Shown: in pieces, positions 12,935 through 61,385 of the stretch
Layout: every line of letters starts with the position of its first letter
Numbering within the stretch: the first letter of the stretch is position 1
Assembly: GCA_000004985.1 (NCBI GenBank)
Contig: GG738896.1
DNA: 64,000 nucleotides
From: Naegleria gruberi
Taxonomy: Eukaryota
Reading direction: 5' to 3' (one strand)
Made by a program: the position numbers and the translations under genes
Notes under the pieces: generated by a model
Told to the model about the DNA's origin: nothing
The model's input: the letters and a program-made list of their open reading frames with translations, nothing else
Database searches by the model: none

Positions 12935-15508
12935 ATGATGTTTACAAGACAAACTGCCAGAAAATCAACTGGTGGAAAGGCACCTCGCAAACAAGTTGGT
13001 TCAAAATCAGCTTTAGGATTAAATTCTTCTAATGCGAGAAAATATCAAATTAATATTAGCGAGTTGAAGGCTAAACATCAACAGCAACTTTCTGATCAGA
13101 ATAATTATAATTTGAATGATGACGCTGATTTGAAGAAATTTATTGATGATCAATATGAAAATTGTGATGATTTGGTTAAAAAGTGGATTCACGATGATTT
13201 GGTCAATCAAAAAGAGGAGATTCAACAATCGGATAGTGATGTAGAGCTTGATACAAGATTGTTGAAAGAATTGGATGAAAATACCAAGTTTGAAATTTTG
13301 CAATTCATTCCAACATTTTCACCAAATGTTGCCAATCAGTCCTTGACTGAAGAAAGAAATATTGAAATGAATCTCGATACTGAATTGATTAGATTTCACA
13401 AAATGAGATTAATTAACAAGAGTTTCAACAAGATTATGATGAAGAAAATTCTCACTCTCAAACATATTACCTTGAAAACTGCTACCAACACTTTAAATTA
13501 TATTAGTTTGCTCTCTATTGCTCAGAAGGCATACAAACAAGCAATGATGATGAACTCGAACCATGATCTAAATATTGATAATGTTTTATTATATAACCCT
13601 TATTCATCAGTAGAAATAGTTGACAACAACCAAAGTTTTGGTTTCAATAACTTTGGTGGTTTTTCAACAGGTCTCAATAGCTTTGGTGGTTTCTCAACAG
13701 GATTTGGTACTTTCGGTACTACAGCAAGCAGTATACTTCAAAACACCAATGAAATCCCATCCGATTCGAGAGAACTAATTTCTGAAGATTCTGAGGATGA
13801 GCTTATTGCAAAATTGTATTTAAAGAGAGAGGACAAGAAAAATCCCCAAAAAGTAGATATTGATTACATGCGTGAAGAGGTTTATTTATACACACATGCA
13901 TCACATACCACTTCTCAAAATCAAAGTAGTTCATATCCACCTGTTATTATGACAGTCAATGAAACTATTGAAACTTTAACTTTGGTAATGGAAGATCAAT
14001 ATCTAGCCAAAGATATTGTAGGGTTTTTTTCTAAATTGAAAAGACTTAATATTTTCATGAATAATGCAACTTTTTATTACGGAGAAGTATTCAACTTGGC
14101 TTCAGAATCTCTAGAGGAAGTTTTAGTTTGTGGTGCTGGTTTGTTAGAACTTCTTATCAACCAACCATATTTGCTAAGCTCTTTTTCTGGGGCTTCTTGT
14201 CCAAAGATGACATCAGTTACATTTTCTCCTCTACTTCCAAATATTTATGCACCAGAAAATATTCTTGATACCTACTTTTCTCAACTACAAGTCACTAATC
14301 CAACCATCCACAAGCTTAATATTTATGATAAGATTGGTAGAAATGAATCCGCATTTATCAAATCTGAAGTATTTACCACTACCAATCCTGTTCAAAGAGA
14401 GCTAAATGTTTACTGTGTTCAATACAAGTCACTTGTAAACATTGATATCTTGGAGGAACTCTATGATATATTTGGAGACCGTTTCGTGAAAACCGTAATG
14501 CCATTCATGATACTCGGATATAATTGCCCTGTAACATTGGAACATGACCAATCACTTTGGAAATCTCATTTTGTGGAACACATGAAAAAGTTCAAAGATA
14601 CTGCAAATTACTTGTTCAAGAAGAGGAAATTTCCTGTTTCAAACGTGTTGCTTTCATTTGACATTATGACAAATAATGTTTTAGAACAGAACATCAAGGA
14701 CAGCAAATTACAATACCTCATATACCTATGTAACCAGTATCAAAATTCTAAACTTTTAAGCTATCTACCTGAAAACAAACAAACTCTATCAACAATTATT
14801 GCCTCAATTTATAGAGGATGGAATTTCACAAAATATACAAATGATCTCTTGGAATTCTTTGTTAGAGCCTTTTTTCACAGAGGAGTTTCTGCCATGTTAC
14901 ATAACTTTAAGTATGATGAAAAATTTATTGTATCTCAAATTGAGTATTTGGCTACTAGTTACACGATTAGTTCTACGATTAGTTCTAGGGCCGTTATTAC
15001 TGAGATAATTATCCACCTCTTCAGAAATAACTCAAAGGTTCTCTACTCTCTTCTTGCAAAACAGGTGGAAGTTTCTGATAATAACACTACATTTACAATT
15101 CCATTTATTGCCTTCCTCTTCGGAAAGGCAGATTGCTATTTAATTGCTAAACTATTTAATGAAATGGACATGGAAACATTCAATTCTTTAGGTCAAAACA
15201 ATAGAGGCGACAACATTCTCCACATTTATGTTTACTTTCAACAAGAATTTAATTACCTCATCTTTTATTCCATACTAAACAAGAATCCAAACTTGATTAA
15301 CATGGTCAATCACAAATTGCAAACTCCGCTTCATTACTTGATGACACTAAATGACAAGAGATCACCTCTTTTACTTCCAGAAATCAATCAACTTCTTAAA
15401 CGTAATAATATTTTGTTAGATATGAATGTTACCGATTATATGGAACAAACTCCTATGAGTATTCTTAAATCAGAAGAATATGAACATGAAGATATCATGT
15501 TTGAATAA
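12935..15508 (+). CDS. Large protein with a histone H3 tail-like N-terminus, FG-type repeats and C-terminal ankyrin repeats
   Basis: 857-aa single-exon ORF. Residues 3-21, TRQTARKSTGGKAPRKQ, match the H3 tail ARTKQTARKSTGGKAPRKQ at 17 of 18 positions. FGFNNFGGFSTGLNSFGGFSTGFGTFG are nucleoporin-like FG repeats. The C-terminus holds ankyrin repeats (GDNILHIY..., QTPLHYLM..., QTPMSIL). Confidence 0.7.
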   Translation: MMFTRQTARKSTGGKAPRKQVGSKSALGLNSSNARKYQINISELKAKHQQQLSDQNNYNLNDDADLKKFIDDQYENCDDLVKKWIHDDLVNQKEEIQQSDSDVELDTRLLKELDENTKFEILQFIPTFSPNVANQSLTEERNIEMNLDTELIRFHKMRLINKSFNKIMMKKILTLKHITLKTATNTLNYISLLSIAQKAYKQAMMMNSNHDLNIDNVLLYNPYSSVEIVDNNQSFGFNNFGGFSTGLNSFGGFSTGFGTFGTTASSILQNTNEIPSDSRELISEDSEDELIAKLYLKREDKKNPQKVDIDYMREEVYLYTHASHTTSQNQSSSYPPVIMTVNETIETLTLVMEDQYLAKDIVGFFSKLKRLNIFMNNATFYYGEVFNLASESLEEVLVCGAGLLELLINQPYLLSSFSGASCPKMTSVTFSPLLPNIYAPENILDTYFSQLQVTNPTIHKLNIYDKIGRNESAFIKSEVFTTTNPVQRELNVYCVQYKSLVNIDILEELYDIFGDRFVKTVMPFMILGYNCPVTLEHDQSLWKSHFVEHMKKFKDTANYLFKKRKFPVSNVLLSFDIMTNNVLEQNIKDSKLQYLIYLCNQYQNSKLLSYLPENKQTLSTIIASIYRGWNFTKYTNDLLEFFVRAFFHRGVSAMLHNFKYDEKFIVSQIEYLATSYTISSTISSRAVITEIIIHLFRNNSKVLYSLLAKQVEVSDNNTTFTIPFIAFLFGKADCYLIAKLFNEMDMETFNSLGQNNRGDNILHIYVYFQQEFNYLIFYSILNKNPNLINMVNHKLQTPLHYLMTLNDKRSPLLLPEINQLLKRNNILLDMNVTDYMEQTPMSILKSEEYEHEDIMFE

Positions 15509-15617: not shown

Positions 15618-15784
15618 ACACTTAAAGGAATCCGCAAACCAATAATGAACCAAAATGAAGTGCATTAGCCGGGAGTCGAACCCGGGTCACCAGCTTGGAA
15701 GGCTGGTATGATACCGTTACACTACTAATGCTTTCTTGGTTAATTCATTCCTTAATGTTCACGATTAAGCACGATATCCCATTC
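15618..15784. repeat. Left arm of an inverted repeat carrying tRNA-Gly(TCC) plus conserved 5' and 3' flanks (partner at 17211..17377)
   Basis: The reverse complement of 15732-15784 (gaatgggatatcgtgcttaatcgtgaacattaaggaatgaattaaccaagaaa) aligns at about 85-90% with 17211-17263 (gaatgagatattgtgcttaaccgtgaatattaaggaatgaaataagcaagaaa). The 3' flanks also align (atgcacttcattttggttcattattggtttgcggattcc versus atgcatttccttttgattcttggtttgcagattccc). Confidence 0.7.
15661..15731 (-). tRNA. tRNA-Gly (anticodon TCC), copy A
   Basis: The reverse complement GCATTAGTAGTGTAACGGTATCATACCAGCCTTCCAAGCTGGTGACCCGGGTTCGACTCCCGGCTAATGCA is 71 nt. It matches eukaryotic tRNA-Gly-TCC (GCCTTCCAAGC anticodon arm, GGGTTCGA T-loop). 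Confidence 0.9.
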
Positions 15785-15912: not shown

Positions 15913-17165
15913 ATGAAAGCAAAAAAATTTCAAATCAGTAAAAAAAAAATGGAGCTATTGGAAGAATCATGCTTGCTCTCAGTGATTAATCTTCCAAAAG
16001 AGATTTGGCTCTATCAAATATGTGAATATTTAGATATTCTTGATATGATTTTTTCGCTGGGGAGAGTTTGCAAAGCATTTCGATATGAATTGGCAAACGA
16101 ATATCTTAAAAAATTCCCAAAAACAAAAAAGAAGGATTCGAATGATCAAGTCAGTTCGATAGATAGCTTTTCAATGAGAAGAGTGAAATATATTATCAGA
16201 GATGAATTACTGAAATTTATTGTAAAGTTTGAAAAATCTCTGACGAATGAAGGAATTTTCGAAAAGAAGGACACGAGCCATGTATCAGAACAGTCCAATG
16301 CTCAACAAAATGATCCAAAATCAACAAATGGTGGTCCCACAATAGAAAAAGAACGTTTAATGGAATTATTCCAATCAAGAATGGAAATATTCGACTTTTA
16401 CTTTTCACATTTCTATAAGAAATTACCAAGTGACGCTAGTGAATCAGCTATCAAGCAAACTTCCATTGCTTCTTCCCTATTTAAATCTGAAAATCAATTA
16501 GTTGAATCCTCATCAGCAAGAAACACTGAAATGAAAAAGATTTTGATTATCGGCAATGGTGGAGGTAAGTTTTCATTGTTAAATATTTCTCTAAATATTT
16601 AAAGTTGGAAAAACAACATTTTGCAGATCAATGCAGGATTTACCACTAAACGATAACCGAAATCTACCAACTATTGGTTGTGAAATCAACTCTTACCGAT
16701 TGAAAATTGCCGGTTTGGAAGCAAATATTAATTTATGGGATACAGGTATGTTCCACACTTTTTAATTGAGATTTTTATTAAAATCAAACAGTTGGTCAGG
16801 AAAAGTTTGGTTTTCTTAGAGATACCCTTTATGTGAATACTTCAGTGTGCATCATTTGTTTTGATCTTACCAGTAGATATTCCTACAAATCTATTCTGAA
16901 TTGGTTCAGGGATATCAAAAGAGTGGAACCTGAATGTGAAGTGATATTTGTCGGAACGAAACTAGATCTAACCGACAATCTGAAAGTAACACCCAAGCAA
17001 ATTACTTTTCCAATTAACAAGTATTGTCCATATATTGGATTGAGTAGTCTTCAACAGATTAATAATAGAGCAGTGTTGTGGTATGTTGCTTTTATGAATC
17101 TGTTTGTTTCCCATTTGAAAGGTATTCATGAAACTCTCATTTGTGATAAAGAAACAATAAATTGA
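15913..17165 (+). CDS. Chimeric F-box / Ras-superfamily small GTPase protein, 3 exons (15913..16564, 16605..16745, 16792..17165); 3' end uncertain
   Basis: The N-terminus LPKEIWLYQICEYLDILDMIFSLGRVCKAFRY fits an F-box. Exon 1 ends KILIIGNGG. The GTAAGT donor at 16565 and the 40-nt intron continue VGKTTFCRSMQ...NINLWDT, completing the P-loop GNGGVGKT. A second 46-nt intron gives VGQEKFGFLRD...SVCIICFDLTSRYSY...VIFVGTKLDL (G3, G4 motifs). The C-terminal tail after NKYCPY is unusual and may hide another intron. Confidence 0.65.
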
Positions 17166-17210: not shown

Positions 17211-17377
17211 GAATGAGATATTGTGCTTAACCGTGAATATTAAGGAATGAAATAAGCAAGAAAGCATTAGTAGTGTAACGGTATCATACCAGCCTTCCAA
17301 GCTGGTGACCCGGGTTCGACTCCCGGCTAATGCATTTCCTTTTGATTCTTGGTTTGCAGATTCCCTTATTATTGTTA
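17211..17377. repeat. Right arm of the inverted tRNA-Gly unit repeat (partner at 15618..15784)
   Basis: See the left-arm entry. The two arms face each other across the F-box-GTPase gene at 15913..17165. Confidence 0.7.
17264..17334 (+). tRNA. tRNA-Gly (anticodon TCC), copy B
   Basis: The 71-nt sequence is identical to the other three copies. Confidence 0.9.
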
Positions 17378-17960: not shown

Positions 17961-19062
17961 ATGAACTATCCTAAAGCTTTAGTTGTATTTCTGATATCTT
18001 TCGCTATCCTCAACGTTGGTATCTTTGCCATCACTGTTTCTCAAGATTTTACCAATGCATTTGATGCAGCTGTCCAAGCAATGATTACTGACAGCGAATG
18101 GAATAAATTCTATTCTGACACGATGTATTTTACAGTGCCAACATGTACAAGTGCAACTGTCAAATGGCCAACTAAGAATCCATTCATTGGTAGAAGTGGT
18201 TTAAACATGTGTTTCGAAACTGGAACTTTATCTCCGTGGTTAGAAACCAAGACGAAAATTGCTCAAATGGTTGTTCAAAAGATTAATTCACACTATGGAA
18301 CAAGTTATAATGCAAATATTTTGAGATTTAATACAAGTGCATTGGGATTCTTTGATACGATGAAAAATGCTGTGAATAATGGAGATTGTAAGTTTCGAAT
18401 ATATTTTTTAAGTTTCGAATATTTTGAAATAATTAATGTTTGATAATTTCGAATAGGTGATATGATAACTGCTAATATTCTTGTTACTGCCGAAAGAAGT
18501 TCATCCATTCATTATCAATGTCCATTCGGATCTGGTTCAAATGGTTGGATCAGAACTAAAAGAGATCCACAACTTTCCATTACTGATATTTCTCAATTGA
18601 ACAAGACTGGAATCATGGTTGGAGGTAAGTTATTGATCATTCATGAAATTTCTCATTCATTATTCAACAAATCTATTCGAAACACAGCTTATGAAGGAAC
18701 TGCTTTTGCAACTTATGTGAAAACTAATCTTCCAGCTGCAACTTTTGTGCCATATTCTGGTATTAACTTGCAATATGACGCTGTTTTGGATGGATCAGTT
18801 CATGCAATTATTGGAGATGGTAAGTTTAATTTAGTTTATTATTGGTATTCGAAACCTTTCAGCTATTCAATATTACAATTGGGCCAATGTTCAAATGTCA
18901 GGAAAATGTAATTGCACTGTTAAAACTTATGGAAATACATTCGGTATGGCCACTTTCACCAATGTGAATATTACAACAAGCGGAGTTGACCAAATCGGCG
19001 GAGGAAATGTTTGGACCTCCTTTTTGGTATTAATAATAGTTTCCATTTTAGTCATGTTTTAA
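17961..19062 (+). CDS. Secreted protein with a bacterial-type periplasmic solute-binding (SBP_bac_3-like) fold, 4 exons (17961..18387, 18457..18624, 18688..18819, 18902..19062)
   Basis: N-terminal signal peptide MNYPKALVVFLISFAILNVGIFA. After splicing out three GTAAGT introns (69, 63 and 82 nt) the protein reads ...DMITANILVTAERSS...GIMVG AYEGTAFATYVKTNLPAATFVPYSGINLQYDAVLDGSVHAIIGDG. This resembles amino-acid-binding SBPs. A hydrophobic C-terminus (SFLVLIIVSILVMF) suggests a GPI or TM anchor. Confidence 0.6.
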
Positions 19063-19185: not shown

Positions 19186-20760
19186 ATGTGGAATGCGAAT
19201 TCTCCTGCGCCATGCTCATCAGGATCATCGGTTGATCAGCAGCAATACAGTCCACTTCCCATCGCCTCTATTCAACAATTTACATCAACAGTAACTCATC
19301 ACGAATTTGTAATGCACTCATCAGAATTATTTGTCGAATTATTTTGAATTCCTGATCGTAAAAAGAAGAATAATTCTGATTATTTGGATGCATATTTCAA
19401 GTCTACAAAGTCTTTTGATGCAAACAAGTATCAATCACAGATTAATCCACAAATTGTACGTCAAGTCCAAATATCAAGTAATGGTATCTCAGATCATTGT
19501 ACAAATGTGCGTTCGTGGTTTATTGAAACCATCATGATGAGAATGGGTATTTTCCTACCTGAGAACATTTCGTTGGTGAAGAGAATTGGAGAGGGAGCTT
19601 ATGGCAGCGTGTATAGAATTGGTAAAGATAAAGTGTTGAAGATTGCTAAAGATGGTGAAGCCATCAAGAAGTTTGATCATCCATTATTGTTGAGTATTGA
19701 GAGGCTTTTTTGGTATGAAGCTGAGAAACTCTTGTTGATTGTTTCTCCATACTATGAATTGGGACATTTGAGAGGTCAATTCACATTAGGTCAATATTGG
19801 TCAATTCTTTGTAATTTGACAAATGCTCTCAAGTATTTACATTCCCAACAAGTTGTTCATAGAGATATCAAGCCAGCAAACATACTTGTAGAAAAAAAGG
19901 ACAAATTTGAAGTGAAAGTTGTTTTAGCTGATTTTGGATTGGCGAAATCGTTCGATTCTTGCAGTGCAGGAAGTGTAGGAACGACCTACTTTGTAGCTCC
20001 AGAATTAATGAAAGGTTATGATGGAGAACATAGTGCTAGAAGAAGAGTTGCCAATGAGAAGAGTGACATTTTTTCTCTTGGAAAGACTATTAGCGTTCTA
20101 ATTTTGAATGACAAACCTGAAGATTTGGAATTTAAGAAGGGGAATTCACTCACCGAATTGCTTAATCGTATGATGAAGTACAAGCCAGAGAATAGACCTT
20201 CGACTGATGAAATTATTTCAATATGTGAAATGGAGATTTCAAAGCTTTCAGAGACTGATTACAATGCAATTTTCAAATTATCCGACAATGATATTGAAAT
20301 ATTTGATGAAATGAGCTTTTACACTGAAAGTAGTTTGAGTGATGGTTTGTTGAAAATGTTAATAAGCGGAGAAAGTTCTCAAAGTCAATCTGCTGTTAAA
20401 CATTCATACACGTTTGATCTTCACGATGACGGTGTTGTAAATGCCAAGAAAATAATTCACATCAAGTGCACACCAGAGGCAAGATTGGCCATCGAATCAA
20501 TCTATCTCAGAATTTACAACACCAAATTCAATACAGGACTCATTGATGTAACCAATTGCTTGTCCAAATCAGTTAGAGAAATATCCAATGATAATGAAAA
20601 GAAATATGCCATCTCTGGTTCACAAAAACAATATCTCATTCCTGCCAAGTCGAAATATCAAAATGAAAAAGGAAAGGACACTATTGAATTGTATATTAAT
20701 AATAGGGATGAACATGTGGCTTCAGCCAATTATGTCGCCAAGAATAATAAAAATAATTAA
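19186..20760 (+). CDS. Ser/Thr protein kinase; the core exon 19366..20760 is certain and the proposed 5' exon 19186..19308 is tentative
   Basis: The kinase core is LVKRIGEGAYGSVYRIGKDKVLKIAK (GxGxxG and VAIK-like), HRDIKPANILV, DFGLAKS, GTTYFVAPE. The TTG-initiated ORF at 19384 has no upstream ATG. An upstream ORF from 19186 (MWNANSPAPCSS...THHEF) ends at a GTAATG donor at 19309. A 57-nt intron to the acceptor AG at 19364-19365 (or 19367-19368) keeps the frame. Confidence 0.6.
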
Positions 20761-20984
20761 TCGAATCCTAAGCTAATAAGAATCAAAAGGAAGTGCATTA
20801 GCCGGGAGTCGAACCCGGGTCACCAGCTTGGAAGGCTGGTATGATACCGTTACACTACTAATGCTTTCTTGCTTATTTATTTTCAACCGTAATGTTCCGG
20901 ATTAAGGGATGCAATATTTTCAATAATTATTTATTTCAATAATCTATTATTCAATTAAAAGTGGAATGACATGTCAGAGAACTT
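20702..20984. repeat. 283-bp direct repeat, copy 1. It spans the kinase C-terminal codons, tRNA-Gly(TCC) and the intergenic region through the 3' end of the RCC1 gene
   Basis: About 97% identical to 22902..23183, with a uniform 2200-bp offset. Confidence 0.85.
20794..20864 (-). tRNA. tRNA-Gly (anticodon TCC), copy C
   Basis: Identical 71-nt sequence on the minus strand. Confidence 0.9.
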
Positions 20985-21034: not shown

Positions 21035-22714
21035 ATGAGCAAACGAAATAGACACAATTTTCCATTAATTCCGGAGAAGGAAATATTCAATAATAACACT
21101 CAAGCAAAAAAGAAAAAACTTGTACTCCATGAACAACGAGAAGAAATATTTTCAGATGATATTTGTTTTGAAATAATTTCCATGATTGATGATTCGTGGT
21201 TTATTTTAAATAATTGTACTTTAATTTCAAAACAATTCTTTAATGTGATCCGAGAACGTTCTAAACTTGTTATTCAATTTAAAAAAAAATTTACAGAGAA
21301 AAGAATTGAATTATTCATGAAAAGTCAATTCATGAATAGTATTGCTAATGTTAAATTTTCCGTTTACTCCTTAGACAATGCCAAATTCATAAGTGAAATG
21401 AAACAATTGACATCACTTGGTATTGCTGAAAATCGAATTGGTGATGAAGGAGTTAAATTCATAAGTGAAATGAAACAATTAACTTTACTTGATATATGTT
21501 GCAATGAAATTGGTGTTGAAGGAGCCACGTCAATAAGTGAAATGAAGCAATTAACATCACTTAATATTTCTGGCAATCGAATTGGTGATGAAGGAGCTAA
21601 ACTCATCAGTGAAATGAAGCAATTAACATTACTTAATATTGCTGACAACCGAATTTGTGTAGAAGGTGCAAAATCAATAAGTGAAATGAAACAGTTAACA
21701 TCACTTAGTATTTCTGACAACGAAATTGGTGTAGTAGGAGCAAAATTAATAAGTGAAATGAATCAATTAACATTACTTAATATTTCTAACAACGAAATTG
21801 GTGATGAAGGAGCCAAATTCATCAGTGAAATGAAACAATTGATATCGCTTGATATTTCTAACAATCTAATTGATATAGAAGGTGCAAAATCAATAAGTGA
21901 AATGAAACAGTTAACATCACTTGAGATTTATTACAATGAAATTGGTGATGAAGGAGTCAAATTCATAAGTAAAATGGAACAGTTAACATCGCTTGATATT
22001 TCTGGAAATCAAATTGGTGTAGGAGGAGCTAAATCAATAAGTGAGATGAAACAATTGACATTTCTTCAAATATTTTCCAATCGAATTGGTGATGAGGGAG
22101 CAAATTCAATAAGTGAAATGAAGCAATTAACATCACTTAATATTTATTACAATCAAATTGGTGATGAAGGAGTCAAATTCATAAGTGAAATGGAACAATT
22201 AACATCACTTGATATTGGTGGAAATCAAATTGGTGTAGGAGGAGCTAAATCAATAAGTGAGATGAAACAATTGACATTTCTTCAAATATTTTCCAATCGA
22301 ATTGGTGATGAGGGAGTCAAATTCATAAGTGAAATGAAGCAATTAACATCACTTAATATTTCTGGCAATCGAATTGGTGATGAAGGAGCCAAGTCAATAA
22401 GTGAAATGAAGCAATTAACATTACTTTACATTTCTAGCAACGAAATTGGTGATGAAGGAGTCAAATTCATAAGTGAAATGAAACAATTAACTTTACTTCA
22501 AATATATTCCAATCGAATTGGTGATGAGGGAGTCAAATCAATAAGTGAAATGAAGCAATTAACATCACTTAATATTTCTGGCAATCGAATTGGTGATGAA
22601 GGAGTCAAGTCAATAAGTGAAATGAAGCAATTAACATCACTTAATATTTCTAACAATCGAATTGGTGATGAAGGAGTCAAATTATTAACATCACTTAATA
22701 TTGTCTTATTTTAA
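21035..22714 (+). CDS. Leucine-rich-repeat protein (RNI-like, 24-aa repeats), intronless
   Basis: 559-aa ORF from the ATG at 21035. From about aa 120 onward there are roughly 18 tandem units of consensus ISEMKQLTSLNISGNRIGDEGAKS (72-bp DNA period). The N-terminus may contain an F-box-like stretch (ICFEIISMIDDSWFILNNCTLISKQFFNVI). Confidence 0.8.
   Translation: MSKRNRHNFPLIPEKEIFNNNTQAKKKKLVLHEQREEIFSDDICFEIISMIDDSWFILNNCTLISKQFFNVIRERSKLVIQFKKKFTEKRIELFMKSQFMNSIANVKFSVYSLDNAKFISEMKQLTSLGIAENRIGDEGVKFISEMKQLTLLDICCNEIGVEGATSISEMKQLTSLNISGNRIGDEGAKLISEMKQLTLLNIADNRICVEGAKSISEMKQLTSLSISDNEIGVVGAKLISEMNQLTLLNISNNEIGDEGAKFISEMKQLISLDISNNLIDIEGAKSISEMKQLTSLEIYYNEIGDEGVKFISKMEQLTSLDISGNQIGVGGAKSISEMKQLTFLQIFSNRIGDEGANSISEMKQLTSLNIYYNQIGDEGVKFISEMEQLTSLDIGGNQIGVGGAKSISEMKQLTFLQIFSNRIGDEGVKFISEMKQLTSLNISGNRIGDEGAKSISEMKQLTLLYISSNEIGDEGVKFISEMKQLTLLQIYSNRIGDEGVKSISEMKQLTSLNISGNRIGDEGVKSISEMKQLTSLNISNNRIGDEGVKLLTSLNIVLF
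21390..22690 (+). repeat. Intragenic 72-bp tandem repeat array (LRR units)
   Basis: The gtgaaatgaaacaattaacatcacttaatatttctggcaatcgaattggtgatgaaggagc... unit is repeated about 18 times with point variation. It produces spurious antisense ORFs at 21364..21720 and 22498..22680. Confidence 0.8.
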
Positions 22715-22901: not shown

Positions 22902-23183
22902 ATAGGGATGAACATGTGGCTTCAGCCAATTATGTCGCCAAGAATAATAAAAATAATTAATCGAATCCTAAGCTAATAAGAATCAAAAGGAAGTGCATTA
23001 GCCGGGAGTCGAACCCGGGTCACCAGCTTGGAAGGCTGGTATGATACCGTTACACTACTAATGCTTTCTTGCTTATTTATTTTCAACCTTAATGTTCCGG
23101 ATTAAGGGATGCAATATTTTTCTTAAAATAATTATTTATTTCAATAATCTCAATTAAAAGTGGAATGACATGTCAGAGAACTT
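22902..23183. repeat. 283-bp direct repeat, copy 2 (includes a pseudo-fragment of the kinase C-terminus and tRNA-Gly copy D)
   Basis: 22903-22960 repeats the last 19 codons plus stop of the kinase gene (RDEHVASANYVAKNNKNN*). The sequence through 23183 matches 20702..20984. Confidence 0.85.
22994..23064 (-). tRNA. tRNA-Gly (anticodon TCC), copy D
   Basis: Identical 71-nt sequence on the minus strand. Confidence 0.9.
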
Positions 23184-53037: not shown

Positions 53038-56000
53038 TTATTCAACCTTAGATGATTGCTCTGATTGTTCTAGAGAGAGGGATCTGAAAATAGGGAAGAA
53101 GGAAGTAACATCATCATTGTCTTCACATCGATCGTAAATGTATTGTTCTGTACCTGTGAATTCAGTCACTGATTTTTGGTAGAGGTAAATTAAAAAGTAG
53201 ACATAATTCCACAAGTAGTGTTCCTCCTTGACATGCTTTTCAAAGGTGATACCTTCATTGGCTCTTGTATCGAATTTAGTTCGTTCCAATCCACAAATAA
53301 AACACTTATCTCGAATGTCCTTCTTTCTGTCTTCTCTTTCATTTCTCAGTACTTCAAACGAATCGAGAATGACACCAAACACAACGTTAACAAGTAACAC
53401 AATAACTATCACTAAAAAGGAAAGGTCAAGTATGGCTCTCTGAACTGAAACATTTGGATCATAAATATCCTCCCAAAAAGATTCTCCTCTAAAGCCATAA
53501 TCCAACATGGTCACATAGCAAGCTAACATATCTTCACATGTCTTGTCGCCTGTCTTGGAGATTTTAAAATCTGAAGAAAAGAAGGTAAAATAGAGTGTAC
53601 CAAAGAAGAATAAGGCAATACACAACAACATTCCTGTAAAGAACAAACGTTTCACATTCGAAGTAACTGATTTCAACACATCGGTCAATGACTTGAAGAT
53701 GTAAACCATTTCAAAAAGCTGTATCGAGTAAATAATTGGAGTTATCAACAATCCAATCACAGAGACTACAATGTAAATAATAAAATACCAAATTTGAGAA
53801 TCTTGTATGGTATATAAAAAGCATTTGGTCATAAAATCAAAATCTCTTGGAATTGAGTCCCACGTTTCGTTTTTCTTTAGCTTGAATCGTTTCTTCACTT
53901 CCAACGTCAAGAAGAGTGATACATAAATGACAAATAGAATTACCAGGAAAATCAATTGTGTCACACCAACAATAATAAGAATTATATCACTTGCAAGATT
54001 TCTAGGTGCTGTAGTTTTGGTGAGAGCATATACATCAAAGTCACTGCCAGGTAAAGGTATTTGAGAATACTCTGTTGTTGCATAAATTCTCTTAAATGTT
54101 CCCAAAACAATAATATTAATAATAACAGAGAGGAAGAATGAAGACAATCTCAAGTAATCCCACCAATTGGCAATATATTCCCATGATGCTGTTTTAACCT
54201 CTTGTTTCTTCTTTTTCTTTCGTTTTGCTAGCAAATTGCTGGTTGTGGCAACGAGAGACATTGAAGGCAAAAGATTTTCCATTTCCTCCTCTGGTTCCTC
54301 TTCTTCTTTCTTGTTGAGATTCGGAATAGTAAAAGTCTTTTTCATATTTTCATAGTGACACATTTCCACATAGAATGTACTGAATGTGTCATTGTACAAT
54401 TTCCTAACTTTTTCTTGTGGAGTCATTACGTGCAACGAATTGGCATAGTTGCTTCTTGCCTTATCGATAATATTGTTACATATTGTTGGTTTGGGAAAGT
54501 AGATCTTTTCAAGTACGTTATTTCTCAATACTTCAATGCTACCAGTTCTTTGTTTGAAATAAGAGAGCTCCTTTGAATTGGTTTGGAAAAAGTTGGCTAC
54601 TCTTGATTCCTCTTCCAAAGCTTGAGTACCCTTTCTGAATTCAGTCTCACTGTCCCTGATCATGGAGAGAAGGAAAAAGATGTGAGTTCCCAAGTCATCG
54701 TATTGCAATCTAATCTTCTCGAGATTGTCCTCCATATAGTCGTCGACACGGATTGGCTTCTTTGAACTCTTCTCAGATTGATACAAAACATGGAATCCAA
54801 AGTCTTTACGCATTCTCTTTTTGAGTCTTTCAAGATCATCACAATCATCATGGTTATTACCCGATAGAGTTTCGAACAATCTCAAAATGTACAATAATTT
54901 TTGTTCAAAATCATCCAAATTCAAAGAATTTTTCATGAATTCTAATGTGACTGTGTTTCTTCCTTCCAATAGAGATATTAAGAAGAGTGTAATTTCCTTC
55001 TTGAGGTCAAGCTCTTGTTCCTTCAACAACTTGCTGTCATCGTAGGTCTTACTCATGATTTCATTGATAAGTCTTGGATAAATCTTATTGGATGTACCAA
55101 TTAAATTTTGGTTAAAGACAGCAGGTCCTTGGACAAATTCGGTCAGGGTCTTAAAACCTTGGATGGCTACTTGAACATTGTCTGCATCCAATTTCTTTTC
55201 CAAAGCAATCAAATATTCAATAATTTCCGTAATTAAATCAAAGCTGAAAATATTTCTTGGTTGATGTTTCAATAGGGCTTGATTTTTGGTATTATGGCCT
55301 TCACACAATAATCTCAAAAATTCCATAGTGTTAAAAATGAATCCCTTTTCTACAAATTCCACACCAACTTCATCTTCTTCGTTATCATGGTCAGCATTGA
55401 GGTTAGTTGTAGACTTTTTCTGGTTAGCTAGTGCCAACTCCTTGTCTCTCTTTTTCTTCAAGTGATTCTTCATTTGTTTGATTTCAATCTTTGAGAGACG
55501 GATTCTGTCTCTAAGAGACATGAAAAATTCGGTAGAGTCTTGATCTGTAAGAAGCGAATAAATATGATTCTGAACGTCAAGATCTCCGTCATTCAATATT
55601 AAAATACCAAGCTCCAAAGCTGATTTTGCAATTTGATGGTGGTTAGAGTTGAGGAATTCAATAACTACCTCAGGAATTTTCTTTTCCACCAAATCTAATT
55701 TAAGAGTTGATTCTTCGGTTTGTTGGTTTTGCCTTTCAACAATACTCTTCAAAATATCCATACCAAAGAGTCCTACCTTCATGTTCTGAAGAAGTAAACC
55801 AGAACTATTCAAGTCACGTAATACATTGACGAGTGTTTTGATAAATCCATCATATTTGATAAATATGGCAGCAAGCTCTGAAAAGTTGGAAAAGTTTCTA
55901 TTAATCTTGGAAATTATTCTGTCTTTCAAGTACTTTTTGTATGTGTTGTGGATAAGTTCGTCCTTCTCGGTACTGGTTGATGTTTGTATTCTTGATCTAT

Positions 56001-59000
56001 GTACCTTGGCTTTAGTGGCCTTATTTGAAATGAAATTAGAAATTGCTTTCTGACTAGTTGAAGACATACTTCTCTTCAACATGGCCTGAATACATTTGAG
56101 AACTTTATCCCTATTCTCTGGATTTGGTGTATGTTTGTGAAGTTCTATGAGTTTTATCAACAAATCTTCTGCAATATCCAACTGTTCTTTTGTCAGATTT
56201 GGAGGTGGGAAGTGGAGATGGAAATAATCTCTCACACAAGGAATCATAATATCAAACAAATAGGTATTATCAACTTGATAGGTTTCTTGATCTTCCTCAC
56301 TAGGTCCAACGACTTTTGGAAGTGCTACAGAGTATGTTTTCGAAGATCGTTTGGAAGCAGTTGTTGACAATCCACGGTTTTTGGTTGGAGTAGCAAACAG
56401 TGAAGTGTTTGAGAGGGTTTTGCTTGGTGTTGTTGGGGTTCGAGTATGGGCATGCATAATACTTTGTCTTTCACCTTTTTGTGTGGATAAAATCAAGTCG
56501 TTACCATCTGATTCATTTGAATAGGTCATTTCTAACACTTCCAATTCAGTAACCATTTTAGAGAATAACTTGAAAAGCATTGGATGATGAACATTTACCA
56601 TCTTGCTCTCAGATTCTGTAGAGTCATCTGATGCCTTTTCAACATTCAAGTAAATTTCATCAATAACTTTAACCAATGGATTTCTCAATACAGGTAGAGT
56701 ACAACAAATAACTTGTTCTAAAAGTTCTTCATAGCTGTAGAGGGTTTGTAATTTAAGCTCACTCTCTCTGTTTTTACCATCAGCAAGAGAGGCCAACAAG
56801 TATAAAAGGGCAATGTGATAATTTAAAATACCATCTGGTTCAGTTTTGTGTTCACCTTTGATAATTCTTTGATTACGTTCTCTGAGACCTTCTTCGTCTT
56901 TGAAAAGAATCATAATGTCCTTCTTTCTTTCGAGCAGATATTTGGTAATGAGTGATTGGTTTCGTTTGATTGGATTGCCATTATTTGTTCCCAGAATGAC
57001 ATGCAAGAACAACAACATGAAAGAGCAAGGTTGCTCAGCAATTTGGTCAATGTAGTGTTCGATTAATTTTTCTTCAATAGTACTGCACAGACCTCTATTG
57101 TCTCTTACCATTTCACAAAGGAGAATGACAATCTTCTTATCTAGACTTCTATTCTCACCAATAGTGTGAATAAAGAATTCCAATTGTTTGAACATAATCT
57201 TTTGATTGTCTTGATTTCCTCTAACAAAAGCAATTAAAATATCAATACCAATCTCTTCAATTTCCTTGCTCACAATATAATCCTTCTTGAGGAATGTGAG
57301 AATAATATCATAAATGAAGAGATTTCTCACTATTCTTTGTGATCTTTGACCATTCTTCTTGATATCTGATAGGATTTCATTGAGAGCTTTTAGGACTTTT
57401 TTCTCTTCCTGTTCTGTGAGTCTTCTAGTACCAAAATAATTGCTTTGACCATAACCAAAAACAGATCGCAACTCAACTACCTGTGAAAGTAGCAAATCGT
57501 AGGATTTAGCCATTTCTCTCGAAACGATAAGTTCAATCTTTGGAAGAACTTCACATAATTCTTGAGCAGATCTGTACTTTCTAATTAGTAAATCAAGGCA
57601 GGTTGTAGCGAGTTCCTTATTTTCATATTTGGTCAGCGAAAGAATTTTAACATCGAATCGATCCATCTTGTTGAAAATAACATCCTTTTCGAGAATATCT
57701 TTGATTACAGCATATTCATTAGAGTCAATTTCGGCAAGTCTTTTCTGTTGTAAAGCTCTATTGTCCATTGGTATCACCTCTTGTTCTCTAAGTACAGTCT
57801 CAATCTCTTCCTCTCTGTATTTCTTCCAAAAGAATTGCAAGAATTTTGTCACTCTCTTGTCTAAAATAATGTCTAGAATCATGTGGAAGATGGAAGCAAT
57901 TTCAATTTTGATCTTCATGAGGGTTAAATTTTCTTCTACGTTTTTGTGTCTTTCTTCCTCACTAAGAATTCTACCATCCTTCTTGTCATTATCTCCTCTG
58001 AGCATATCAAAGAGAGAATTCAACAAATCACCCTCCTCAAAGTCTATCAATGTAAGAACTCCAAATTCCAACATTCTCTTACACATAATTACAACGTATA
58101 ATGTAAAGTTGTTGTGATCCTTCTTTTCTAAAGACACATCCAAGCTAACATTCTCTCTAAGGAATTTCCCTAAAAAATCTTTGATTTCTGCCAAATCCTT
58201 TGAGTTGCCGTCTTCTTTTGATCTTTGATTGAGAGTACTGGTTTTTCTGGTGTAGTCAATCAGTGGTTTCTTTTCTCTCTTCTCCGTATCAATGAAAGTT
58301 TGGATCAAAAGCTTTACAAATGATGTTCTGACGGCTGGTGTTAAATTCTTATCAGAGACACATTTGTGGACAACTTCGTAGGTGAACAGAGAAACAACAG
58401 ATCTTCTCGCATCCTCAATTTCTTCATTTCTTCCTGTACAGAGGGCAGCAAAAAGACGAATTTCCTCTTGGAAGAAGATGAGTTGTTCATAATTTGGTCT
58501 TGTGTATCCATTGTATGTATCATCTGTTGCAGACTGAGAGAAACTAATCAAGTCTATTTCATCATGATTGACTTCTACCACAACCTTGTCTTCATTGTTA
58601 AGCTTTGGAATGATAAAAACTCTTCTCAATTGGTCCTTATATTTTGAAAAAAGCAAATTACCAATATATACCTGATTTTTCACCACAGTTTTACCTTCAC
58701 AAATGATCAAGCTAGTCAAAAAGGATAAATAGACAGCCTTCTTCAAGCTCTTGGAACTTTGTCGCATACCAATCTTTGATGTGTTTTCAAAGAGAAGCTT
58801 GACGAAAAAGTCAATTTGTGACTCGGTAATCTTGTTCAAAAGTGGATAATTGTTGGATAAGATTTCCAACAGAGCTTCACTTGCAGCAATGCTATGTTCA
58901 ATCAGAGTTTGGATAAAGTTGATATATTGTGCCATGTAGAGACCGTTAGATTCGTTTGAAAGGACAAACTGTCTAATGAGTCTGAAGGAGTACTGAACCA

Positions 59001-61385
59001 CATCAAAATAAAGTGCCTTCTCTGGCTTTTCATAAATTAAAGATAAATCCTCAATTGATAAATATTTCTTCAATAATAGAGTGATATTTTCCATTACAAG
59101 ACCAATGACTCCCATATCTCTGATGATATTTTGTCTAAGTTTAACAGGAATACCACCTCTTGTTAGAGGGTCTGTCTCTTCACTAATAGTACAAAATCTA
59201 ATGCAATTTGCCAATGCACCAATGTAGAGTTTGATATCTGACTTGTCAATGAGCGAGTCGTCCAACTTGGATTTGAAATACCTAATAATTGGCATGTAAC
59301 CAGCTACGGTGAGTGCATCATTCAAATCCTCATGTGAAACAGCTGAAAAATTGAAAACATCCTGTTCAAACATTTTCAAAGATGAAGTTACTCTCTGATA
59401 GGTTGAGTCAGCAAGTGGTCTAGATATGTGTACCCAAGAATTAGTGGCTTCATGCCTCAATCTAAAGTAATCGGTGGTTTGAACTTTCTCACCCTTCTTT
59501 TGTCCTCCAGTCGAGTCGGTGAAATGGAAGACACTGGTTGGTATTGGTTGTGTAATCAAGTCATCAAAGTTTTCAACATGAAGAGTCCACAATGAATCAT
59601 TTTGTGTTACGCTGCCTGATCTATTTCCTCGTGGAGTGGCTACAATTGAACTTTTTCTAGGTGCATTAACTCCAAGTTGGCTCAAGTTATCACCAGATGT
59701 TGGTGTGTTTTCTCGTTCATATCTTTCTTCAATGGCATCATCCGCTTCAATGGTTATTCCTTTAATAGGACGAATCACCATGTATTTTCCACTTGCCAAG
59801 TGTCTTAGACGGAATTTCGAAGTCCACTTTACAGTACCAGAACAGCTAGAGTCTAAAAATTCCAATTGCCACAAAGTTTGAGGACTCACATAGTCAGAAG
59901 ATTTAGATTCCATACCAGCCAAGCTTGTATCCTCAGAGTCGTTGATTTGTAGATTGCTTGATTTCTTGAAAAATTTAATTCTATCCGTTTTTTCATTCAC
60001 TCCAATATATCCTTCCAATTCCTTGTGGTATATTCTCATAATGGTGGATCCTGCTTTGAGTTTTCTATTTGTTTCATCATTTTGTGGTGTGTATTTTTGG
60101 TAGAGTTTCATTCTCCACCTAGTGAATGCAGTACTATTCGCCATGTTAACTTCTCTTCTACTATCGTAGGAATATTTTCCTCTATTTCGTGATAATTTTA
60201 CAGCTTGTTGAGCTAATTCTGTGTATGAAGAATTTTCATTCACTCTTTGATAGGTACCATCATTGTCTTCTCCAGTTGTGTATCTATAATAGGATAAGTG
60301 AATAAATTGGTTGGACTTTTTGTTGTAAAGTCTAATTTGATCAGTGAGTTTAACTTGATCTCCATCCTTTTGAAAACTGGAATATGGCATTATTTGAAAG
60401 TATGAATAGGTAGATCCTTCTTTATCGAGGGCCAATCTCATACAATCCTTTTGCATTTCTGCAGATTCTCTTGCTACTGTCAGATAGCACTGTGTTTGTA
60501 CATGATACAATTGTACTGTTTGTCCATAGACAACTGGTTTTGAAAGGTTTCTTTGTGATTCCATCCTATTTTGTTCAAGTTCTCTTTCAGCTCGTTGTTC
60601 CAATTGTTGATATTCTGTTGAGAAGGAGGCTGTCGAAGGCATTACATTATTCTTGTTATCCTTTGTTTTTTTGTTGGCCTCTTTCAACTCTTGTTCTTCT
60701 TTGAAGGTTTTGAACTTTTTCAGTGCTGAATAACTCTTTGGATGACAAATCTTGAAAACACAATTAGAAAAGTTTGGTGTAAAGAAGGAAGAATCCTTTT
60801 CTGAAATGACAGATTCCACCAGACCACATCTAGCTTGTGGTTTGTTTCTAAAATATTGATGAAATAATAAAAGTAGTATTTAACAGAGAATAAAGAAGGT
60901 GAATAATTAGTTGAATATTTAAACAATATTTACCCTTTAACATTCTCGGAACAAGTCAAATTAATACCATCCACACTCAAGAACCCAATCATTGAATTAC
61001 CAGTACTTTTTGATGACAAATCCGTATAGAAGGAAATTTCCTCTCCAATTCTCAAATAATCTCCCTTCTTTTTCATCATCATATTATTCATCCACAATTG
61101 TTGCTCATCCTCCTTCACATCACTCATCACATCTTCATCCTCATCATACAAATGATGATCAAAGCCTTGTTGTTGCTGTGCAGAAGAGGATGATGATGAC
61201 GAATATTCGGAATGTTGTTCATGATGATGATTTGATGTGGCGCCATTATTTTTAACGGCAGAAGTGGCGCTTACCGATACGATGAGTTGTTCTTGTTGTT
61301 GATGAAATAAGAGTGCATAGTCAAAGAGGTGTTGTGATGATGGTTCGGAAGAGTTGCTATTGTTATGATTATTGGATAGTGTCAT
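53038..61385 (-). CDS. Inositol 1,4,5-trisphosphate receptor (IP3R/RyR superfamily) homolog, 2 exons (61385..60934, 60847..53038), about 2750 aa
   Basis: The exon-1 tail LRIGEEISFYTDLSSKSTGNSMIGFLSVDG is like the IP3R N-terminus SFLHIGDIVSLY...GFISTLG. The minus-strand GTAAAT donor at 60933 and AG acceptor at 60849-60848 (86-nt intron) continue into NKPQARCGLVESV...FSNCVFKICHPKSYSALKKF (like [20 protein letters not shown]). A six-TM C-terminal channel region follows. The signature tail is CFICGLERTKFD...FEKHVKEEHYLWNYVYFLIYL (IP3R: CFICGLERDKFD...EEHNMWHYLCFIVLV). Confidence 0.85.

Follow-up and report, generated by a model that had tools for sequence, protein, structure and literature searches.

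A gene of four exons occupies the plus strand of Naegleria gruberi contig GG738896.1 between an ATG at position 17961 and the end of a TAA stop codon at 19062, within the 64-kb stretch of DNA that was analyzed (64,000 nucleotides; here called the window), and no second copy of it was found in this 64-kb window. Once spliced, it forms an in-frame ORF of 927 nt that encodes 308 amino acids. Exon 1 (17961 to 18387; amino acids 1 to 142 plus the first base of codon 143) specifies a predicted signal peptide (17961 to 18041; residues 1 to 27), a relocated helix pair (18042 to 18125; residues 28 to 55, DFTNAFDAAVQAMITDSEWNKFYSDTMYF) whose homologues are the helices that end classical SBP_bac_3 proteins, a linker containing cysteine, and the first four elements of lobe I (strand 1, helix 1, strand 2, and helix 2). 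Lobe I strand 3, a TAER motif that includes Arg156 (codon 18495 to 18497), the first crossing of the hinge, and the beginning of lobe II follow in exon 2 (18457 to 18624; amino acids 143 to 199). Exon 3 (18688 to 18819; amino acids 200 to 242 plus the first base of codon 243) contributes lobe II, with a Gly202-Thr203 motif and with Asp242 at the second hinge, and exon 4 (18863 to 19062; amino acids 243 to 308 and the stop codon) supplies a helix (residues 243 to 253), a CxC motif (C258 and C260), a strand run (residues 261 to 276) that ends as the last strand of lobe I, and a GPI-attachment-type C-terminal signal recognized by inspection (18976 to 19059; residues 281 to 308).

The three short GTAAGT introns proposed in an earlier, sequence-only reading of this DNA were borne out. 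Intron 1 (18388 to 18456; 69 nt, GTAAGT...TTCGAATAG), intron 2 (18625 to 18687; 63 nt, GTAAGT...TTCGAAACACAG), and intron 3 (18820 to 18862; 43 nt, GTAAGT...TTCGAAACCTTTCAG) all begin with GTAAGT, end with AG, and lie in phase 1, and the removal of these U2-type GT-AG introns restores the conserved reading frame. Intron 1 holds an in-frame stop codon (together with three copies of TTCGAA, which did not prove to be a general N. gruberi intron signal in this window), intron 3 would shift the frame if retained, since its 43 nt are not a multiple of three, and intron 2 matches in position and phase an intron in the Naegleria lovaniensis homologue P0001. Furthermore, the spliced protein aligned without gaps to five Naegleria homologues over all of the junctions (NNGDC/DMITAN, IMVG/AYEG, and IIGD/AIQY, where the slash marks the junction). 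These observations support the splice junctions, and comparison at the sequence level thus confirmed the predicted gene of four exons and three spliceosomal introns. One peptide string in the sequence-only reading overshot into intron 3 by a codon, so that it ended in IIGDG where the spliced product has IIGDA. The N. gruberi protein set seems to lack this gene, as no N. gruberi protein model matched it above 40% identity in the protein database searched. The only near-identical database entry, P0009, is an ORF call that runs from exon 1 into intron 1.

HMM and structure searches both supported the SBP_bac_3-like, type II periplasmic-binding-protein (PBP) fold that had been proposed for the product. 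The single 308-amino-acid protein matched TIGR01096 with an E value of 3.9e-8. Its match to PF00497 reached 22.1 bits against a gathering threshold of 26.4 (E = 1.3e-4) and covered only residues 131 to 181 of this divergent sequence, whereas 30 of 50 family members matched PF00497, the best of them at 5.2e-35, and no competing family emerged. Profiles of the family were compared with binding proteins in the PDB, giving an E value of 8e-9 for the A1 profile and of 3.3e-37 for the 50-sequence (A3) profile against solved class-F amino-acid-binding proteins. The AlphaFold model built from 50 family sequences (a six-sequence run gave a pLDDT of 66) is a bilobed alpha/beta type II fold with two hinge crossings, in which the domain is unbroken between residues 80 and 276 and residues 286 to 289 form the sole low-confidence segment. 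We attribute the sub-threshold PF00497 score to an operational cut-off and a divergent sequence and take the profile- and fold-level evidence as decisive; on profile alignments and the predicted model, the assignment of the domain as a class-F (SBP_bac_3, type II PBP) Venus flytrap holds. Six cysteines and a set of N-x-S/T sequons are conserved.

The sequence-only reading had aligned the mature region in order with amino-acid-binding proteins of bacteria. This holds for most of that region but fails for its first ~30 residues, which correspond to the bacterial C terminus. In the canonical order, strand 1 is N terminal and the helix pair (L..a.n.aL.el..dGt...i..KWf) is C terminal. Here, that order is changed, such that only a linker and a hydrophobic tail follow the last strand, where classical proteins have helices. 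Among solved class-F binding proteins, a profile of residues 28 to 55 from 48 family members found its matches at the extreme C termini alone. With an N-terminal 34-residue profile, 41 of 43 PDB matches were class-F binding proteins, always at the C-terminal end, among them 3vv5 (residues 224 to 254 of 260) and the end of SBD1 in the tandem structure 6h30 (E = 3.4e-7). The reconstructed protein AncCDT-1 matched the family profile in two stretches, in permuted order. As judged from these alignments, the domain is circularly permuted, a noncanonical family variant in which the terminal helix pair now starts the mature protein. The two helices (residues 28 to 42 and 45 to 55) were modeled at a pLDDT of ~98, and this, with the homology, suggests that residues 28 to 55 would occupy the site of the classical C-terminal helices. 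Neither the permutation nor the gene family had been noticed in the sequence-only reading, and we found no description of a natural permuted class-F binding protein or of the amoeba family in the literature retrieved, an incomplete library that makes this weak evidence of novelty.

A known analogue of the rearrangement is the SBD1-SBD2 tandem of Lactococcus lactis GlnPQ (6h30). The family profile was collinear across the SBD1/SBD2 junction (profile positions 31 to 264 to chain residues 195 to 405), so that the Naegleria family corresponds to the last helices of SBD1 followed by SBD2. If permutation proceeds by duplication followed by truncation, the duplicated intermediate should resemble a GlnP-like tandem, and the permuted family may descend from such a tandem protein. 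The GlnP domains themselves are complete, unpermuted, and fused to the permease, whereas the Naegleria protein has one permuted domain and a predicted lipid anchor. The family would offer a case from nature of permutation by duplication and truncation, one for which GlnP is a tandem-domain analogue that still exists, and the permutation marks where a flytrap tolerates new termini, a point of practical interest to biosensor engineers. Relative to bacterial class-F proteins of the PF00497 type (GlnH/GlnBP, HisJ/LAO, ArtJ, and the reconstructed AncQR and AncCDT-1), the Naegleria protein has the C-terminal helix pair at its N terminus, and its gene differs in having introns and in encoding six conserved cysteines and a GPI-type C-terminal signal. 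There is also no ABC permease or ATPase among the three neighboring Naegleria genes that were scanned.

The same permutation was found in prokaryotic proteins, namely, P0119, P0150, and the product of L003 4004 to 4999, the last in a metagenome-assembled genome titled 'Candidatus Heimdallarchaeota archaeon RS678', a name that is the label of a metagenome bin. The permutation point is identical, with residues 32 to 62 aligning to AncCDT-1 residues 216 to 246 and residues 89 to 295 aligning to residues 14 to 216. The prokaryotic proteins share with the amoebal family an N-terminal signal, a [YFW]-P motif in the linker ahead of strand 1, and a C-terminal hydrophobic membrane anchor straight after the last strand. 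They are only ~20% identical to the Naegleria protein, however, and differ from it in being intronless, in lacking the six cysteines, and in having a basic cluster past the anchor. Next to them lie genes for a GlnQ-like ATPase and for an ABC permease that is fused to BNR repeats, a setting that marks them as true parts of a transporter. With an identity of only ~20%, a shared origin of the permutation in the prokaryotic and amoebal proteins is no more than plausible.

Positions that contact the backbone of an amino acid ligand are retained in the family. In an hhalign alignment to GlnBP, R156 corresponded to R75, G202-T203 to G117-T118, and D242 to D157; we take GlnBP R75, G117-T118-G119, and D157 to be the contacts to the alpha-carboxylate and alpha-ammonium groups of the amino acid. 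Arg156 is kept in 54 of 55 family members, G202 in 45, T or S at position 203 in 52, and D or E at position 242 in 44, so the positions equivalent to alpha-amino-acid-binding residues are conserved and are putative binding residues of the family. When the alignment was extended manually, GlnBP G68 and T70 fell opposite N149 and L151. The main-chain and hydroxyl contacts made by lobe I may therefore differ, and the ligand is perhaps not a standard amino acid.

The protein belongs to a multigene family that is expanded in Naegleria and Willaertia and includes the pathogen Naegleria fowleri. The best homologues (E values of about 1e-95, with 6e-96 for N. lovaniensis, which has at least seven paralogues) occurred only in Naegleria, and remoter relatives were found in Willaertia, Heterolobosea sp. 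BB2, and two Amoebozoa. In one of these relatives, Cavostelium P0094, the shared ectodomain leads into a hydrophobic stretch and then into kinase-like sequence, a call that we made by eye from HRDIALRNIL and DFG motifs rather than from a Pfam scan. The introns, the six conserved cysteines, the GPI-type signal, and a multigene family spread over Heterolobosea and Amoebozoa uphold the earlier suggestion of a domesticated bacterial-type module. The three neighboring genes scanned encode a Ras-family GTPase, a protein kinase, and an LRR protein, and we saw no functional link to the gene from any of them. The neighbors of the N. lovaniensis homologue belong to different families, with no obvious synteny.

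On balance, we favor the reading that this gene encodes a cell-surface, GPI-anchored, circularly permuted class-F amino acid receptor of N. gruberi, and we hold it with moderate confidence; we infer signal cleavage, GPI attachment, the class of ligand, and a signaling role within it. The N-terminal signal would direct the protein to the endoplasmic reticulum, where the six cysteines and N-x-S/T sequons would fit an oxidized, glycosylated ectodomain. The C-terminal signal would then be exchanged for a GPI anchor a few residues past the last strand of lobe I, an arrangement that would tether lobe I to the outer leaflet and leave lobe II mobile. The lobes would close on an alpha-amino acid or a closely related small carboxylate/amine ligand, with Arg156 gripping the carboxylate, Gly202-Thr203 providing main-chain and hydroxyl contacts, and Asp242 gripping the ammonium group. 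Since such a protein would have nothing on the cytoplasmic side, its closed, ligand-bound form would need either a transmembrane partner, for chemosensing or the control of feeding, or internalization with its cargo.

The protein may serve in nutrient or prey sensing. The best functional precedent by analogy is EhVFT of Entamoeba histolytica, a signal-peptide-bearing, GPI-anchored Venus flytrap of ~43 kDa without a transmembrane domain, the knock-down of which reduced motility and phagocytosis (PMC12965686, 2026). EhVFT is a type I PBP (an ANF-receptor/LIVBP-like flytrap of the class C GPCR type), neither SBP_bac_3 nor permuted, and it is homologous to the Naegleria protein only at the superfold level. 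This precedent, the conserved contact residues, and the kinase-like fusion seen by eye in P0094 make a sensor role more plausible. The ligand-binding domains of ionotropic glutamate receptors (GluR0, AvGluR1, NMDA receptors, and plant GLRs) are split into S1 and S2 by an inserted ion channel and lack a GPI anchor. In the Naegleria protein, no pore-forming transmembrane segment lies between the equivalent halves, the only hydrophobic segments being those at the two termini, and the change of topology is a permutation rather than an insertion. PfVFT1 of Plasmodium was grouped with the ionotropic receptor domains as a comparison system. If members of the family bind amino acids, they are candidate prey- or nutrient-sensing receptors in free-living and pathogenic amoebae, and their ectodomains, which are small, soluble, and predicted with high confidence, would make this directly testable.

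A GPI-anchored receptor could instead gather amino acids or some scarce metabolite on the cell surface and bring them in by endocytosis without any signaling, as GPI-anchored folate receptors and trypanosome nutrient receptors do in capturing their ligands. The lack of a cytoplasmic domain or an obvious partner fits such a role, as do the highly endocytic habit of Naegleria, a family whose seven or more N. lovaniensis paralogues could form a set of nutrient specificities, and the uptake context of the prokaryotic proteins with the same permutation, which lie in ABC-importer operons. We nevertheless consider simple nutrient capture unlikely. Free amino acids normally enter cells through carriers in the membrane, and phagosomes are where a bacterivore gets them; moreover, the relative with an ectodomain upstream of kinase-like sequence (as read by eye) points toward signaling, and EhVFT knock-down alters motility and phagocytosis (PMC12965686).

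A bolder form of the receptor reading, which we regard as speculative and rather doubtful, is that the family is an undescribed class of eukaryotic surface chemoreceptor, a lipid-anchored, permuted amino acid flytrap derived from an already permuted, anchored prokaryotic protein in which GPI and a signaling partner replaced the anchor and the transporter. The permutation would then be more than incidental, since with the helices moved to the front the last lobe I strand would have been left with a free end to which a C-terminal membrane anchor could be joined. The prokaryotic ABC transporter binding proteins, including the one from the bin labeled Heimdallarchaeota, have the same C-terminal-anchor solution, and the Cavostelium kinase-like relative can be cited as an example of a signaling partner in the place of the transporter. 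Descent from the prokaryotic protein would have been by transfer or, as the least likely course, vertical from the archaeal ancestor. The ligand-binding parts of glutamate receptors and class C GPCRs descend from solute-binding flytrap domains, and to our knowledge few cases of eukaryotic recruitment of such domains are known. The locus would add a route of recruitment that we did not find described, combining a naturally permuted class-F domain, a surface lipid anchor, and multigene expansion.

Hydropathy analysis revealed hydrophobic segments only at residues 3 to 28 and 287 to 308, in line with the signal peptide and C-terminal hydrophobic anchor originally proposed. The N-terminal segment (MNYPK, with its basic residue, then 19 hydrophobic residues and TVS/Q, where the slash marks a cleavage site inferred from the -3/-1 rule only) has a rather long hydrophobic region for a signal peptide, and a comparable segment starts all of the homologues. 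At the other end, the layout NITTSGVDQIGGGNVWT-SFLVLIIVSILVMF-stop places small residues (T-S-G and G-G-G) and a short polar spacer before a hydrophobic tail, SFLVLIIVSILVMF, after which the protein stops without any cytosolic residues; the omega site could be either TSG or GGG in this tripartite signal, which was judged by heuristic inspection. The sequence-only reading had allowed either a GPI or a transmembrane anchor, and the layout of the tail, a point that it missed, favors the former. A C-terminal transmembrane helix (type I or tail-anchored-like) or an uncleaved N-terminal signal anchor, with no GPI in either case, would accommodate the hydrophobic C terminus and the long, 19-residue N-terminal stretch, and in the prokaryotic relatives that share the permutation, a basic cluster (RRKK or RKLRQ) comes after the hydrophobic segment and marks a true membrane or sortase-type anchor. 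Such anchoring is distinctly improbable for the Naegleria protein, however. Its tail of 14 to 17 residues (14 in the core, 17 uncharged) is short for a bilayer-spanning helix, is preceded by the small residues and spacer, and has no basic cytosolic residues after it, and most of the full-length family members from eukaryotes show this pattern as well (an uncharged run of 11 to 28 residues, mostly with 0 to 6 residues after it). EhVFT has a comparable tail, and its GPI anchor was shown experimentally (PMC12965686). Evidence for GPI-anchored proteins in the genus has been reported in a Naegleria pangenome paper (PMC9928731). The protein is thus probably GPI anchored rather than held by a transmembrane segment.

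Recruitment of the flytrap for catalysis, as in a cyclohexadienyl dehydratase, or for a nonligand role as an adhesive or structural surface glycoprotein is very improbable. AncCDT-1 belongs to the binding proteins itself, and ancestral sequences, being consensus-like, often rank first in profile searches; the positions for the amino acid backbone (Arg, Gly-Thr, and Asp) are retained in 80 to 98% of the 55 members, and an extracellular, GPI-anchored dehydratase would have no obvious substrate. Finally, although the domain type is overwhelmingly prokaryotic and no matching N. gruberi protein model turned up in the database searched, where the only near-identical entry is the ORF call P0009, the notion that the gene is a bacterial contaminant, was transferred very recently, or is a pseudogene in decay merits almost no credence and is already contradicted by the data, namely, a neighboring 857-amino-acid ORF 100% identical to an N. 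gruberi protein, a uniform local GC content of 31 to 37%, three spliceosomal introns of which one is common to N. lovaniensis, an intact spliced ORF with all of the family-conserved residues, and paralogues and orthologues in four heterolobosean genomes or transcriptomes.

The ATG at position 17961 opens a 160-codon ORF that terminates within a segment beginning with GTAAGT, in surroundings that are AT rich throughout (31 to 37% GC). Removal of three GTAAGT...AG segments from the plus strand, all in phase 1 (intron 1, 18388-18456, 69 nt; intron 2, 18625-18687, 63 nt; intron 3, 18820-18862, 43 nt), leaves a single 927-nt frame of 308 codons ending with TAA at 19060-19062. Intron 1 contains an in-frame stop, intron 3 shifts the frame, and the spliced protein aligns with five homologues with no gaps at any of the three junctions. 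Furthermore, the Naegleria lovaniensis homologue P0001 (contig L002, 8001-9254) likewise has three GTAAGT introns, one of which matches intron 2 in codon position and phase, between ILVG and AY, while the remaining two lie at different positions. As a consequence of the stop, the frameshift, the gap-free alignment, and the common intron position, the splice junctions are not arbitrary, and the three-intron gene that the sequence-only reading had placed at 17961-19062 was confirmed.

A word-index search found close homologues in Naegleria only: N. lovaniensis matches of 55 to 56% identity (E = 6e-96), N. fowleri matches of 48 to 51% identity, and a single N. gruberi paralogue (P0004, 40% identity). 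No N. gruberi protein model in the databases searched matched the window gene itself, and the one entry close to identity, the 149-aa P0009 of an ENA contig, was exon 1 translated on into intron 1; judging from these searches, the gene seems to be missing from the N. gruberi reference protein set. When 1.84 billion cluster representatives were searched exhaustively with an HMM, 198 relatives emerged. The E value was below 1e-10 for 106, and many of the 198 were full length (300 to 340 aa) with the layout of the window protein. Members with a named source comprised at least seven paralogues in N. lovaniensis, at least four members each in N. fowleri and Willaertia magna, and others from Heterolobosea sp. 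BB2 and two amoebozoans, Cavostelium apophysatum and Mastigella eilhardi; all remaining relatives came from metagenome or SRA contigs. The N. lovaniensis paralogues P0017 (C9374_002535) and P0019 (C9374_002538) share a 689-kb contig and have locus tags that differ by three, which suggests that the family expanded locally in tandem in that species.

Pfam family SBP_bac_3 matched the window protein alone only weakly (E = 1.3e-4; 22.1 bits over residues 131-181, the gathering score being 26.4 bits), TIGR01096 matched it at E = 3.9e-8, and PDB amino-acid-binding proteins matched the single sequence at about 1e-4. A profile of six Naegleria sequences (alignment A1) reached AncCDT-1, a reconstructed class-F binding protein, at E = 8e-9. 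With a 50-sequence family profile, the best PDB match had an E value of 3.3e-37 and 429 sequences fell below 1e-3; among the matches listed (60 of 429), all were class-F binding proteins or their derivatives. PF00497 was matched individually by 30 of the 50 family members (best, 5.2e-35), and there were no competing families. An AlphaFold model built on a shallow alignment had a pLDDT of 66; nonetheless, its Foldseek matches were all class-F. The profiles settle the question: the window protein has a type II PBP fold, and the SBP_bac_3-like fold proposed from sequence alone was supported by HMM and structure searches alike. Several Naegleria members carry the UniProt name [quoted passage not shown] so the domain has already been picked up by automated annotation.

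In classical SBP_bac_3 proteins, the last lobe-I strand is followed by a helix-turn-helix with the motif L..a.n.aL.el..dGt...i..KWf. Past its last strand (...FGMATFTNVN), the window protein has a short linker and a hydrophobic tail and nothing else. Its mature N terminus reads DFTNAFDAAVQAMITDSEWNKFYSDTMYF, and a near-textbook version of the helix-pair motif is found at the N termini of distant members (e.g., LNAGLAETMASGEWERTYAKWF and LDAMDVALTAIVDSGDYDTIFETWF). We therefore compared a profile of this 34-residue N-terminal segment, made from 48 members, with all PDB sequences. It matched 43. Class-F binding proteins, or flytrap domains closely related to them, made up 41 of these, and in the 41 the match invariably lay at the extreme C terminus (3vv5, 224-254 of 260; 5eyf, 209-236 of 245; 8b5e, 194-223 of 225). 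The top match (E = 3.4e-7) was to the end of SBD1 in 6h30, the tandem SBD1-SBD2 of GlnPQ. The full-length family profile aligned with AncCDT-1 in permuted order (profile 81-272 on chain 15-197 and 31-60 on 216-245) and with 6h30 collinearly over the SBD1/SBD2 junction (31-264 on 195-405). In the structure predicted from 50 family sequences, helices occupy residues 28-42 and 45-55 (pLDDT, about 98). These results make the window protein a naturally occurring circular permutant, and we hold its identification as a permuted class-F flytrap with very high confidence. The obvious route to such a protein would be truncation of a tandem-domain protein at both ends; the search also found a tandem-domain example (P0143). 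A different SBP_bac_3 permutant, a lipoprotein (lipobox LSGC) in an Actinomycetota MAG (L005, 3566-4489, +), has the order lobe II, last strand, C-terminal helices, linker, and lobe I, with an ABC permease directly downstream. Either a genuine second type of permutation or truncation of a tandem protein could account for it, and it suggests that permutation is recurrent in this family.

Exactly the same permutation point as in the amoebal family was found in three prokaryote-style proteins: P0119, P0150, and the 331-aa product of L003 4004-4999, a contig labeled "Candidatus Heimdallarchaeota archaeon isolate RS678" from its metagenome bin. The L003 product aligns with AncCDT-1 as residues 32-62 on 216-246 and 89-295 on 14-216. 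All three have an N-terminal signal, an aromatic-Pro pair in the linker before strand 1 that aligns with the near-invariant amoebal Pro70, and a hydrophobic C-terminal anchor followed by basic residues. The L003 gene adjoins a BNR-repeat/ABC-permease fusion and a GlnQ-type ATPase, with the same neighbor in contig L001. This transporter context implies that permuted, C-terminally anchored class-F binding proteins are real prokaryotic transporter components. They hint at a link between the amoebal family and anchored archaeal or bacterial transporter proteins, from which the family may or may not descend; their identity to the Naegleria protein is only about 20%. The adjoining permease (L003, 2045-3811, −; L001, 2-1345, −) is of the amino-acid ABC type with a long N-terminal BNR/PSII_BNR-type β-propeller ectodomain, an unusual permease architecture.

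When aligned with GlnBP by hhalign, CDMITANILVTAER falls on VDLALAGITITDER, AYEGTAF on VKSGTGS, and VHAIIGDA on ADAVLHDT, which places Arg156, Gly202-Thr203, and Asp242 at the positions of GlnBP Arg75, Gly117-Thr118, and Asp157. In the 1WDN complex, these GlnBP residues hold the α-carboxylate and α-ammonium of the ligand; the numbering of the GlnBP sequence used is consistent with the published contact list. Among 55 members, Arg156 is conserved in 54, Gly202 in 45, Thr/Ser203 in 52, and Asp/Glu242 in 44. Extending the alignment by hand made Asn149 and Leu151 the equivalents of lobe-I GlnBP Gly68 and Thr70, so that details of ligand contact may differ from those in GlnBP. On balance, this pattern of residues favors an amino-acid-like ligand, if by a modest margin.

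Strong hydrophobicity is confined to residues 3-28 and 287-308. Cysteines 62, 84, 143, 164, 258, and 260 are each kept in 42 to 51 of the 55 members. Asn191 (sequon N191-K-T) is kept in 45 of 55, the sequon itself less completely, with Pro at position 193 in 9; full invariance of N278-I-T is limited to the six Naegleria sequences of A1 (Asn278 in 15 of 55 overall). These cysteines and sequons would fit a secretory-pathway ectodomain. The C-terminal tail, ...NITTSGVDQIGGGNVWT-SFLVLIIVSILVMF, runs from small residues through a brief polar spacer to 14 hydrophobic residues, with which the protein ends, a design that recurs in most full-length eukaryotic members at the point where classical proteins have the helix pair. 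Its architecture is the canonical one for a GPI-attachment signal and makes GPI anchoring probable. Of the "GPI- or TM-anchored" C terminus proposed earlier, the hydrophobic tail stood, and a typical transmembrane anchor is unlikely, the tail being too short and too terminal for one.

Two relatives have additional C-terminal regions: in P0094 (673 aa, from a Cavostelium apophysatum transcript), the permuted ectodomain leads into a hydrophobic stretch and a sequence resembling a kinase (HRDIALRNIL and DFG, by eye), and in P0111 (1013 aa, SRA contig), the permuted flytrap is followed by long Cys-rich EGF-like repeats. They suggest that the permuted ectodomain may serve as a modular receptor head in Amoebozoa.

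The window protein is homologous to class-F amino-acid-binding proteins and would work like them, but two things set it apart from canonical members: the linear order of elements that helps to define the family has changed, and none of the three neighboring genes scanned encodes an ABC permease or ATPase. Nor is it an iGluR, for it lacks an inserted channel. The nearest parallel in function is EhVFT of Entamoeba histolytica. Experiments showed that this flytrap, which has no transmembrane domain, is GPI anchored and that its knock-down makes motility and phagocytosis fall (PMC12965686). It belongs, however, to the type I (LIVBP/ANF-receptor-like) flytraps, is related to the window protein by superfold only, and has a ligand that is not known. 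Taken together, the gene model, class-F homology, and type II PBP fold bear out the earlier observation and interpretation, and the best explanation is a putative receptor at the surface of the amoeba: a circularly permuted flytrap of the amino-acid type, probably held by a GPI anchor, which would act via a partner or through internalization and might serve either sensing or uptake. It is a tidy natural permutation that brings no new principle. In a literature search of incomplete coverage, we found no description of the Naegleria family or of a natural permuted class-F binding protein; the putative amoebal receptor family, with N. fowleri genes among its members, appears to be previously unrecognized.

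The window gene lies among an 857-aa ORF (12935-15508) 100% identical to an N. gruberi predicted protein, part of a Ras-family GTPase gene (16833-17165, +), a protein kinase gene (19384-20760, +), and a gene for a 559-aa LRR protein (21035-22714, +), with a 2593-codon ORF farther off (53038-60819, −). The perfect match of the 857-aa ORF assigns the window to N. gruberi. No functional link to the flytrap gene was evident among the kinase, Ras-family GTPase, and LRR neighbors. Four identical tRNA-Gly(UCC) genes (15660-15731, −; 17264-17334, +; 20793-20864, −; 22993-23064, −) flank it at spacings of 1.5 to 3.5 kb; with their 20-nt flanks about 90% identical, they are a dispersed repeated tRNA unit. 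tRNA-Pro, tRNA-Lys, and tRNA-Ala genes lie farther upstream.

Five of the 46 TTCGAA sites in the window fall within the 175 nt of the gene's introns (18394, 18414, 18448, 18676, and 18848), and ATTCGAA(A/T)N(0-8)AG terminates each of the three; a direct repeat, AAGTTTCGAATAT, lies inside intron 1 as well. The element, absent from most other GTAAGT sites of the window, might act like a branch point directly next to the 3′ splice site, or it could mark a shared origin of the three introns.
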